Shown here in pieces: positions 8,727 through 13,064 of a stretch of DNA of 64,000 bases. The DNA comes from Escherichia coli (GTDB taxonomy: Bacteria; Pseudomonadota; Gammaproteobacteria; Enterobacterales; Enterobacteriaceae): NCBI RefSeq assembly GCF_024223415.1, contig NZ_CP100500.1; one strand, written 5' to 3'. Every line of letters starts with the position of its first letter. Within the stretch, counting starts at the first letter, position 1. A program made the translations under genes and the position numbers. The notes beneath the pieces are model-generated. The model was not told where the DNA came from, searched no databases, and was given only the letters and a program-made list of their open reading frames with translations.

Positions 8727-10088
<1,362 letters not shown>

Positions 10089-10227
10089 AACGTGAGGAAA
10101 TACCTGGATTTTTCCTGGTTATTTTGCCGCAGGTCAGCGTATCGTGAACATCTTTTCCAGTGTTCAGTATGGTGCCTTGCACGGTAATTATGTCACTGGT
10201 TATTAACCAATTTTTCCTGGGGGATAA

Positions 10228-11367
10228 ATGAGCGCGGGAAGCCCAAAATTCACCGTTCGCCGCATTGCGGCTTTGTCACTGGTTTCGCTATGGCTGGCAG
10301 GCTGTTCTGACACTTCAAATCCACCGGCACCGGTCAGCTCCGTTAATGGCAATGCGCCTGCAAATACCAATTCTGGTATGTTGATTACGCCGCCGCCGAA
10401 AATGGGGACGACGTCTACAGCGCAGCAACCGCAAATTCAGCCGGTACAGCAGCCACAAATTCAGGCCACTCAACAACCGCAAATCCAGCCAGTGCAGCCA
10501 GTAGCTCAGCAGCCGGTACAGATGGAAAACGGACGCATCGTCTATAACCGTCAGTATGGGAACATTCCGAAAGGCAGTTATAGCGGCAGTACCTATACCG
10601 TGAAAAAAGGCGACACGCTTTTCTATATCGCCTGGATTACTGGCAACGATTTCCGTGACCTTGCTCAGCGCAACAATATTCAGGCACCATACGCGCTGAA
10701 CGTCGGTCAGACCTTACAGGTGGGGAATGCTTCCGGTACGCCAATCACTGGCGGAAATGCCATTACCCAGGCCGACGCAGCAGAGCAAGGAGTTGTGATC
10801 AAGCCTGCACAAAATTCCACCGTTGCTGTTGCGTCGCAACCGACAATTACGTATTCTGAGTCTTCGGGTGAACAGAGTGCTAACAAAATGTTGCCGAACA
10901 ACAAGCCAACTGCGACCACGGTCACAGCGCCTGTAACGGTACCAACAGCAAGCACAACCGAGCCGACTGTCAGCAGTACATCAACCAGTACGCCTATCTC
11001 CACCTGGCGCTGGCCGACTGAGGGCAAAGTGATCGAAACCTTTGGCGCTTCTGAGGGGGGCAACAAGGGGATTGATATCGCAGGCAGCAAAGGACAGGCA
11101 ATTATCGCGACCGCAGATGGCCGCGTTGTTTATGCCGGTAACGCGCTGCGCGGCTACGGTAATCTGATTATCATCAAACATAATGATGATTACCTGAGTG
11201 CCTACGCCCATAACGACACAATGCTGGTCCGGGAACAACAAGAAGTGAAGGCGGGGCAAAAAATAGCAACCATGGGTAGCACCGGAACCAGTTCAACACG
11301 CTTGCATTTTGAAATTCGTTACAAGGGGAAATCCGTAAACCCGCTGCGTTATTTGCCGCAGCGATAA
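10228..11367 (+). CDS. nlpD: Murein hydrolase activator lipoprotein NlpD (LysM + M23 peptidase domain)
   Basis: 379 aa; lipobox LAGCS; Gln/Pro-rich linker; LysM and LytM domains; directly upstream of rpoS. Confidence 0.95.
10423..10518 (+). repeat. Imperfect 24-bp tandem repeats (about 4 copies) encoding the Gln/Pro-rich linker of NlpD
   Basis: Units cagcaaccgcaaattcagccggta / cagcagccacaaattcaggccact / caacaaccgcaaatccagccagtg / cagccagtagctcagcagccggta, giving QQPQIQPV-like peptide repeats. Confidence 0.7.
10829..10857 (+). promoter_or_regulatory. Putative major rpoS promoter inside nlpD (-35 TTGCGT, 17-bp spacer, -10 TATTCT)
   Basis: Hexamers sit about 570 bp upstream of the rpoS ATG, consistent with the known long rpoS 5' leader; exact boxes are my assignment from sequence. 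Confidence 0.5.
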
Positions 11368-11429
11368 ATCGGCGGAACCAGGCTTTTGCTTGAATGTTCC
11401 GTCAAGGGATCACGGGTAGGAGCCACCTT

Positions 11430-12422
11430 ATGAGTCAGAATACGCTGAAAGTTCATGATTTAAATGAAGATGCGGAATTTGATGAGAACGGAGTTGAGGT
11501 TTTTGACGAAAAGGCCTTAGTAGAAGAGGAACCCAGTGATAACGATTTGGCCGAAGAGGAACTGTTATCGCAGGGAGCCACACAGCGTGTGTTGGACGCG
11601 ACTCAGCTTTACCTTGGTGAGATTGGTTATTCACCACTGTTAACGGCCGAAGAAGAAGTTTATTTTGCGCGTCGCGCACTGCGTGGAGATGTCGCCTCTC
11701 GCCGCCGGATGATCGAGAGTAACTTGCGTCTGGTGGTAAAAATTGCCCGCCGTTATGGCAATCGTGGTCTGGCGTTGCTGGACCTTATCGAAGAGGGCAA
11801 CCTGGGGCTGATCCGCGCGGTAGAGAAGTTTGACCCGGAACGTGGTTTCCGCTTCTCAACATACGCAACCTGGTGGATTCGCCAGACGATTGAACGGGCG
11901 ATTATGAACCAAACCCGTACTATTCGTTTGCCGATTCACATCGTAAAGGAGCTGAACGTTTACCTGCGAACCGCACGTGAGTTGTCCCATAAGCTGGACC
12001 ATGAACCAAGTGCGGAAGAGATCGCAGAGCAACTGGATAAGCCAGTTGATGACGTCAGCCGTATGCTTCGTCTTAACGAGCGCATTACCTCGGTAGACAC
12101 CCCGCTGGGTGGTGATTCCGAAAAAGCGTTGCTGGACATCCTGGCCGATGAAAAAGAGAACGGTCCGGAAGATACCACGCAAGATGACGATATGAAGCAG
12201 AGCATCGTCAAATGGCTGTTCGAGCTGAACGCCAAACAGCGTGAAGTACTGGCACGTCGATTCGGTTTGCTGGGGTACGAAGCGGCAACACTGGAAGATG
12301 TAGGTCGTGAAATTGGCCTCACCCGTGAACGTGTTCGCCAGATTCAGGTTGAAGGCCTGCGCCGTTTGCGCGAAATCCTGCAAACGCAGGGGCTGAATAT
12401 CGAAGCGCTGTTCCGCGAATAA
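11430..12422 (+). CDS. rpoS: RNA polymerase sigma factor RpoS (sigma-S/sigma-38)
   Basis: Known N-terminus [14 protein letters not shown] starts at ATG 11430 (330 aa); ORF-track frame extends to an upstream ATG at 11394. Codon 33 is GAG (Glu). Confidence 0.97.
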
Positions 12423-12437
12423 GTAAGCATCTGTCAG

Positions 12438-12470
12438 AAAGGCCAGTCTCAAGCGAGGCTGGCCTTTTTC
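12438..12470 (+). terminator. rpoS intrinsic terminator (GC hairpin + T-run)
   Basis: aaaGGCCAGTCTCaagcGAGGCTGGCCttttt directly after the rpoS stop. Confidence 0.75.
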
Positions 12471-12541
12471 TTTTGTTTGGGAAGCTTGTGTTTTTGTCGC
12501 CTGGATAAGACACGTCAGCGTCCTACCCGGCAATTTGCATC

Positions 12542-12949
12542 CTATGTGTTCATCATCTTGCGCACCAGCTGCACAAACAGCTCCTGCTCTTCTGCACTCA
12601 AACGCCCCAAAAATTCCTCATCCACGCTGTCACCAATCGGTATCGCCGCAGCAAGTATCTTTTCTCCTTCGGCAGTCAGCCAGACAAAGCGACGCCGCTT
12701 GTCAGCGGCATCATGTTCACGTCTGACTAAGCCACGATTCTCCATTCTTGCCAACATTTCTGCCAACGTTGCTTTGGTGCTGACTGCTGCTTCTATCAGT
12801 GCCACCTGTTCGATACCAGGCTTATCAGCAATGGCGCGCATCACCGCATACTGTGGTTTGGTCAGGTCAGGTAACTCGTGCTGCCAGCGAGCCGTGTGCT
12901 GCTGAAAAAGCTGTCGTAACTGATGGAACGCTTTATTTCGTAACGCCAT
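12542..12949 (-). CDS. MarR/SlyA-family transcriptional regulator
   Basis: ORF-track frame 12542-12982; Met at 12949 has a GGAG Shine-Dalgarno 7 nt upstream, giving about 135 aa. Winged-helix MarR-like sequence. Divergent from the decarboxylase operon. Confidence 0.8.
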   Translation of the reverse strand: MALRNKAFHQLRQLFQQHTARWQHELPDLTKPQYAVMRAIADKPGIEQVALIEAAVSTKATLAEMLARMENRGLVRREHDAADKRRRFVWLTAEGEKILAAAIPIGDSVDEEFLGRLSAEEQELFVQLVRKMMNT

Positions 12950-13064
12950 GTAAACTCCGGGCAAACTATCTGCCGCTATCATAGCGGTTTTTCAGTGACG
13001 AAGGGGATGTTGTTACTTTTCAGTGCTTGCCGCAATGAGAACAGAGGCGTATTTTAATAATAAT

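Follow-up and report, generated by a model that had tools for sequence, protein, structure and literature searches.

The nlpD locus and its 24-bp array

The window, a 64,000-nt stretch of Escherichia coli DNA, carries surE, pcm, nlpD and rpoS in the order typical of E. coli, as read from its open reading frames and from the RefSeq annotation of matching loci (Table 1). The initial annotation had assigned the third of these genes to nlpD and had recognised a Gln/Pro-rich linker of QQPQIQPV-type units within its product, and both assignments are borne out by Pfam, by synteny and by the units themselves. The translation has a signal peptide with a lipobox and Cys, followed by a LysM and then a Peptidase_M23 domain, each exceeding the curated Pfam cut-off, and it is 99% identical to the representatives of the E. 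coli NlpD clusters. The motif L[AVS]GC is kept in all of the NlpD homologues that were parsed, and an nlpD annotation lies under every E. coli match to a 221-bp query drawn from the locus and run against complete genomes. The K-12 protein is known to activate AmiC and to localise to the septum (PMC5533458), and the likeness of the window protein to it is consistent with the same activity and localisation.

It should be noted that RefSeq/PGAP now places the nlpD start at a TTG at 10273, giving a protein of 364 aa, as opposed to the ATG at 10228, which gives 379 aa. The 364-aa form has only 10 residues ahead of the lipobox Cys; missing from it are K7, R11 and R12, the positively charged n-region that one expects in a lipoprotein signal peptide. 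The ATG at 10228 is preceded by GGGGGA. Judged from these features, the ATG looks the more plausible start. Directly downstream of rpoS, on the minus strand at 12542-12982, is a gene for a MarR-family regulator that resembles HosA/SlyA-like genes; a gene of this type belongs to the variable rpoS-mutS region and is not known from K-12 at this position. Taken with the 100% identity of an O157:H7 genome over the 221-bp query, this gene suggests a strain of the O157:H7 type. An Rfam search of positions 9500-12600 returned a single sub-threshold match, to ctRNA_p42d at 12436-12476 (28.7 bits, the gathering score being 50), which coincides with a hairpin just past the rpoS stop codon. We judged this match to be due to chance, the hairpin being most likely the stem-loop of the rpoS terminator.

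Table 1. Features of the nlpD-rpoS region, with positions in the 64,000-nt window.
Feature	Position	Strand	Basis
nlpD coding sequence, 379 aa from ATG; outer-membrane lipoprotein, putative activator of amidase AmiC	10228-11367	+	ORF, Pfam, RefSeq annotation, synteny
Lipobox LAGC, residues 23-26; lipidated Cys26 at 10303-10305	10294-10305	+	translation
Unit U1, QQPQIQPV, CAGCAACCGCAAATTCAGCCGGTA	10423-10446	+	sequence, self-match, repeat search
Unit U2, QQPQIQAT, CAGCAGCCACAAATTCAGGCCACT	10447-10470	+	sequence, self-match, repeat search
Unit U3, QQPQIQPV, CAACAACCGCAAATCCAGCCAGTG	10471-10494	+	peptide of U1, with 4 synonymous differences
Unit U4, degenerate, QPVAQQPV, CAGCCAGTAGCTCAGCAGCCGGTA	10495-10518	+	14/24 identity to U1, mostly through the terminal CAGCCGGTA
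11-bp direct repeat CAACCGCAAAT, left copy	10426-10436	+	partner at 10474-10484, lag 48
12-bp direct repeat CAGCCGGTACAG, left copy	10438-10449	+	partner 72 bp away
12-bp direct repeat CAGCCGGTACAG, right copy	10510-10521	+	exact match
9-bp tandem sub-repeat CAGCCAGTG/CAGCCAGTA (QPV QPV), site of the -9 and +9 bp alleles	10486-10503	+	lag-9 exact match of 8 bp; allele alignment
LysM peptidoglycan-binding domain, residues 123-165	10594-10722	+	Pfam PF01476, E = 2.7e-12
Major rpoS promoter within nlpD (PrpoS): TTGCGT 10829-10834 (-35), TATTCT 10852-10857 (-10), start ~10863	10829-10863	+	start site from the literature, hexamers read
Degenerate LytM / Peptidase_M23 domain, residues 279-372	11062-11343	+	Pfam PF01551, E = 4.6e-33
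rpoS coding sequence	11430-12422	+	ORF; rpoS annotation at matching loci

The array lies between the lipidated Cys26 and the start of the LysM domain at residue 123, and amounts to 32 residues (66-97) of Gln/Pro-rich sequence. Its extent, 10423-10518, had been given to the nucleotide in the initial annotation and is in the nlpD frame, codon 66 starting at 10423. The accompanying description, about four imperfect 24-bp units, holds for three clear units, while the fourth is degenerate and is made up of a 9-bp QPV sub-repeat and AQQPV. At the DNA level the clear units are 63-83% identical (U1/U3 20/24, U1/U2 17/24, U2/U3 15/24). Tandem Repeats Finder reports a period of 24 with 2.6 copies and 75% matches at 10426-10488, and a second repeat search (find_repeats) recovers a three-copy family with 24-bp spacing across the array. 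When the sequence was compared with itself at a lag of 24 in windows of 72 nt, no position in the 64 kb gave a higher value than 10422 (43/72), which stands about 5.8 sd above a background with mean 19.7 and sd 4.0. Where the array matches itself exactly, the longest stretches measure 12 bp at a lag of 72, 11 bp at 48, 9 bp at 24 and 8 bp at 9. Upstream of the array, at 10388-10396, a (CCG)3 tract encodes PPP in a conserved motif.

Array length in complete E. coli genomes

A census of 5,426 complete E. coli genomes was made with the query of 221 bp, which spans the array. The locus is present in 5,420 of them, with at least 80% of the query covered in 5,418 and identity below 95% in just five; in a sample of 60 evenly spaced matches, the span was exactly 221 bp in 59. 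An O157:H7 genome matches the query at 100% identity, and the K-12 derivative MC4100 has the array length of the window with two synonymous differences. In six of the 5,426 genomes megablast detected no counterpart of the nlpD linker region, and in one the region matched at two places; these cases may represent loss, disruption or duplication of the locus.

Synthetic alleles were also used as bait, so that loci of non-standard length would rank first and could then be read: one query was one unit shorter (197 nt), one was one unit longer (245 nt) and one carried a 48-bp deletion. Array length was found to be changed in at least 13 of the 5,420 genomes (0.24%), and every change is in frame (Table 2). 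This count is a lower bound: lengths were read in the sampled or bait-ranked matches, among the 60 listed for each search, and array indels of 3-6 bp could hide in the 95-99% identity band. The 197-nt and 245-nt queries exposed the 9-bp losses and gains and the +48 bp allele, and they found no allele differing by a single unit (±24 bp) in the complete E. coli genomes. The third query found no -48 bp allele among the complete genomes; here all wild-type matches were split in two pieces, which makes the identity bands uninformative.

Table 2. Length alleles read in complete E. coli genomes.
Change	Genomes	Strains	Nature of the change
-72 bp	1	Z142-6	array reduced to one unit (complete assembly)
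+48 bp	1	PapRG-04-4	U1-U2 duplicated (complete assembly)
-9 bp	7	2014C-3061, 13E0780, 13E0725, four OkiPb strains	one QPV lost
+9 bp	4	13P460A, PS2Canimalfeces3, SW07096, Rb-50	one QPV gained
-3 bp	2	A30, G47-1	upstream (CCG)3 tract loses one CCG (PPP to PP), outside the array

Two sets of candidates were set aside. A30 and G47-1 ranked at the top of the 245-nt search as if they had longer arrays, a ranking that proved to be an artefact of two-piece matching. RM9387, the weakest match, brought out by the query with the 48-bp deletion, is not a length variant; it has a divergent, E. fergusonii-like allele of identical length in which 18 of 33 array codons differ from the window, 14 of these 18 synonymously. 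The RM9387 genome (NZ_CP009104.1) is labelled E. coli, and its pcm and nlpD are 89.6% and 89.3% identical to those of the window; its RpoS has the accession of the RpoS of the ordinary E. coli strain Z142-6 (WP_000081550.1). These sequence comparisons suggest either that recombination left a boundary close to the 3' end of nlpD or that the genome belongs to a cryptic clade.

As a positive control we used the intragenic repeat of tolA, for which copy numbers between 8 and 16 have been reported in a set of 234 isolates (Zhou, Michiels and Aertsen 2012, PLoS One 7:e47766; PMC3477136). The repeat was located in MG1655 and queried in the same way as the nlpD array. At least 80% of the tolA query is covered in 4,385 of 5,424 genomes, the remaining 1,039 (19%) falling below this coverage; 749 genomes match at less than 95% identity, and sampled spans vary widely. 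Because tolA is plainly polymorphic under the same method, the census detects polymorphism where it is present, and by this measure the tolA repeat is more variable than the nlpD array by roughly two orders of magnitude.

We conclude that array length hardly varies in E. coli: in-frame variants are sporadic, at about 0.2% of genomes. The initial annotation had proposed a length-polymorphic site, to be examined by comparing nlpD length across strains. Such a comparison did bring in-frame variants to light, so that repeat number is very nearly rather than strictly invariant, but the proposal itself is not supported in the complete genomes: more than 99.7% of the 5,420 share one repeat number.

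The nearest rival reading, that the site is truly variable in length in the manner of a VNTR, with copy numbers that often vary between strains and could tune NlpD, is one that we regard as highly improbable. It can draw on the head-to-tail, in-frame arrangement of the units, on the in-frame variants of Table 2, on the +72 bp, -48 bp and seven-unit alleles of a wider protein collection, and on the loss of 12 bp, in frame, from nlpD of Salmonella Typhimurium UK-1 (PMC3391293), a loss that we place in the same linker by comparing the deleted sequence with Salmonella linkers from proteins of 373 and 377 aa. However, a site of this kind is expected to show appreciable differences in copy number between strains and a high identity between units, whereas the nlpD array combines the rarity of variants and the lack of one-unit alleles with units that match at only 15-20 of 24 positions and share no exact lag-24 match longer than 9 bp. 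Moreover, the seven genomes with the -9 bp allele may share one event, and the tolA repeat, seen through the same method, has many spans.

Breakpoints, homologues and the level at which the array acts

The changes in length occur at the longest exact microhomologies of the array (12, 11 and 8 bp). In Z142-6 the 72-bp deletion joins exactly at the 12-bp repeat CAGCCGGTACAG, and the reciprocal +72 bp duplication is found in a protein from an E. coli assembly (P0003). Among exact repeats spaced as in the +48 bp allele of PapRG-04-4 and in a -48 bp allele from a metagenome scaffold (P0008/L010), the longest is the 11-bp repeat CAACCGCAAAT; the -48 bp allele has a hybrid unit that switches from U1 to U3 inside this repeat. 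The alleles that lose or gain 9 bp are located in the QPV sub-repeat, as judged from the alignment of 2014C-3061, 13P460A and Rb-50. From breakpoints of this kind we infer occasional microhomology-mediated slippage.

Beyond E. coli, the homologue search found the same architecture of three units and a degenerate fourth in E. fergusonii. An Escherichia lineage whose pcm and rpoS are 93% and 95.6% identical to those of the window (GCA_026283405.1, here L009) has seven units, derived from a perfect 72-bp duplication on a four-unit base; this seven-unit allele was in none of the complete E. coli genomes searched. L009, too, has a MarR gene downstream of rpoS. Only a degenerate stretch rich in PQIQPV and QPV occurs in Citrobacter, Salmonella, Kosakonia, Enterobacter, Lelliottia and others, and Yersinia is without the repeat region altogether (PMC2736372). 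In almost all of the genera compared, 66-80 residues separate the lipidated Cys from a conserved GRIVY motif (75 in E. coli), the main natural outlier being a Citrobacter freundii cluster (P0050) with 57.

Taken together, the array may be described as an old, degenerate in-frame minisatellite within nlpD, whose units would have drifted apart at synonymous sites until only exact microhomologies of 8-12 bp were left. Copy-number change, by slipped-strand or microhomology-mediated events, would be rare because of this drift, and would proceed in steps of 9, 48 and 72 bp rather than 24 bp. Array length would then differ only between Escherichia lineages and between genera.

Two further observations were made among the homologues. 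Three proteins (P0045, P0087 and P0092) are 100% identical to the window NlpD over 81-85% of the query and have the appearance of fusions: P0045 (560 aa) has LysM, Peptidase_M23 and UbiD-like domains (PF20696/PF01977), P0092 (550 aa) has LysM and the same UbiD-like domains without M23, and P0087 (403 aa) has LysM and Sigma70_r4. They may reflect deletions or frameshifts that join nlpD to rpoS or to genes beyond it. The second linker of NlpD, a Thr/Ser/Pro-rich stretch between LysM and the degenerate LytM domain (~10830-10950 in the window), also has rare in-frame indels. A 39-residue deletion in P0030 (AVAS…TAS collapsed) would take out the PrpoS region inside nlpD, and in the Citrobacter-like P0033 six residues, an additional stretch of STSS type, are inserted with respect to its close relative P0031.

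The array also lies in the nlpD-rpoS operon, upstream of PrpoS, and this raises the possibility that it acts on DNA or RNA, as an upstream element of PrpoS or as a structured part of the nlpD-rpoS bicistronic mRNA; regulation of rpoS is famously multilayered (PMC10948607). The transcription start of PrpoS is 567 nt upstream of the rpoS ATG (PMC10948607), that is, at about 10863, and the hexamers TTGCGT and TATTCT are rightly spaced for the -35 and -10 elements of this start. A generic sigma-70 consensus scan missed PrpoS, a weak-consensus promoter, and its placement therefore rests on the literature. With this start site, 311 bp separate the end of the array from the -35 element downstream, in agreement with the distance of about 310 bp given in the initial annotation, which had also anticipated that changes in an array upstream of the promoter would mainly alter the NlpD linker. 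The array ends 345 bp upstream of the start site and is thus absent from the main rpoS mRNA. It is the peptide rather than the nucleotide sequence that is conserved, as seen in the synonymous changes between the window and RM9387 (14 of 18 changed codons) and between U1 and U3 (4 of 4). Furthermore, no Rfam family matches the array region even at E <= 1, and natural alleles delete or duplicate the array. A role at the DNA or RNA level is unlikely on these grounds, and we give it slightly less credence still than a VNTR-like site.

The least probable reading of all is that a low-complexity Q/P composition gives the periodicity by accident, without true duplication: U4 is indeed degenerate and the Q/P-rich stretch of other genera is merely loosely periodic, but the lag-24 match is the highest in 64 kb, the period is recovered by two separate searches, the Ile codons run ATT/ATT/ATC across the three units in the window as well as in RM9387, divergent though its allele is, and perfect unit-wise duplications occur in related lineages (L009; PapRG-04-4).

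The linker and its relation to known systems

The preferred reading, with a probability of close to nine in ten, is accordingly that of an old minisatellite, essentially fixed in E. coli, that acts at the level of the protein through spacer length and flexibility. It belongs to the N-terminal tether between the lipidated Cys26 and LysM of the outer-membrane lipoprotein NlpD. The N-terminal linker of NlpD is predicted to be disordered by DISOPRED (PMC5533458), and the Gln/Pro-rich composition of the array is consistent with disorder. NlpD without residues 29-64 is kept in the inner membrane to an extent of about 60% and complements the chaining of an envC nlpD strain poorly, and removal of Lpp relieves this defect, pointing to handling by the Lol pathway (bioRxiv 10.1101/2021.01.05.425367); a linker-only construct comprising residues 1-115 shows weak midcell enrichment (PMC5533458). 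To judge from the deletion work, the tether would allow the outer-membrane-anchored protein to be handled by the Lol pathway and to reach septal peptidoglycan. By analogy with the published deletion of residues 29-64, residues 66-97 would add length and flexibility to this tether. Neither the exact sequence nor the exact length of the array is essential, because alleles lacking 16 or 24 residues, or with 16-26 extra, exist naturally in apparently viable isolates.

A more speculative proposal, to which we assign a low though not negligible likelihood, is that tether length is under stabilising selection, as a 'ruler' between the outer-membrane anchor and septal peptidoglycan, with the Q/P repeat as an evolvable module for adjusting length. 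The distance from Cys to GRIVY is held at 66-80 residues across genera of the Enterobacteriaceae despite the scrambled sequence of the segment, there is a hint that Escherichia has amplified a clean QQPQIQPV unit anew, arriving at a similar total length, and length variants are confined to about 0.2% of E. coli although mutational routes to them clearly exist. Should the proposal be true, the natural alleles of -24 to +26 residues would be a ready-made allelic series for models of envelope distance.

The array itself is already known, as the long-described Gln/Pro-rich stretch of the NlpD tether. It was reported in 1994 in a paper whose title names an 'unusual amino acid repeat' (Ichikawa et al., J Bacteriol 176:1630; via PMC2736372), and a 'P/Q rich region' of NlpD is named by Tidhar et al. 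(2009, PLoS One 4:e7023). The published repeat and the array in the window agree in gene, position and peptide repeat, with no structural difference between them. As the repeat entered the literature with the first description of nlpD, and behaves as a fixed part of the spacer, its presence here matters little; what is added is a population census, a catalogue of alleles and the microhomology breakpoints. The in-frame alleles (linker -16 to -24 or +16 to +26 residues) are possible reagents for work on how the length of a disordered linker affects Lol sorting and outer membrane-peptidoglycan coupling.

Three known systems offer a comparison. The array resembles the N-terminal disordered linkers of outer-membrane lipoproteins (RcsF, Pal and NlpD; El Rayes et al. 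2021) in being placed after the lipidated Cys and ahead of the first folded domain, and published work has shown that the length and disorder of such linkers matter for Lol-dependent sorting; the Pal linker has also been described as a length 'ruler' (J Bacteriol 2025, PMC12826056). The published NlpD deletion, however, stops just before the array. With the contingency loci of phase-variable genes in Haemophilus and Neisseria it shares the placement of tandem repeats in the coding region of a surface or envelope protein. Those loci have many identical units of 1-8 nt that shift frame or promoter spacing by high-rate slippage, whereas the nlpD array has three diverged copies of a 24-bp unit and rare changes, all of them multiples of three. 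The third comparison is with the tolA repeat, which is likewise an in-frame tandem repeat in an extended, non-globular, envelope-spanning segment of an envelope and division protein, where copy number sets the length of the spacer. Yet tolA, with about 13 copies of a 15-bp unit, is plainly polymorphic, while the nlpD array, with three diverged copies, is 99.76% monomorphic. Set beside tolA in the same 5,426 genomes, nlpD thus serves as a clear-cut negative case: tandem repeats that are in frame need not vary once their units have diverged synonymously.
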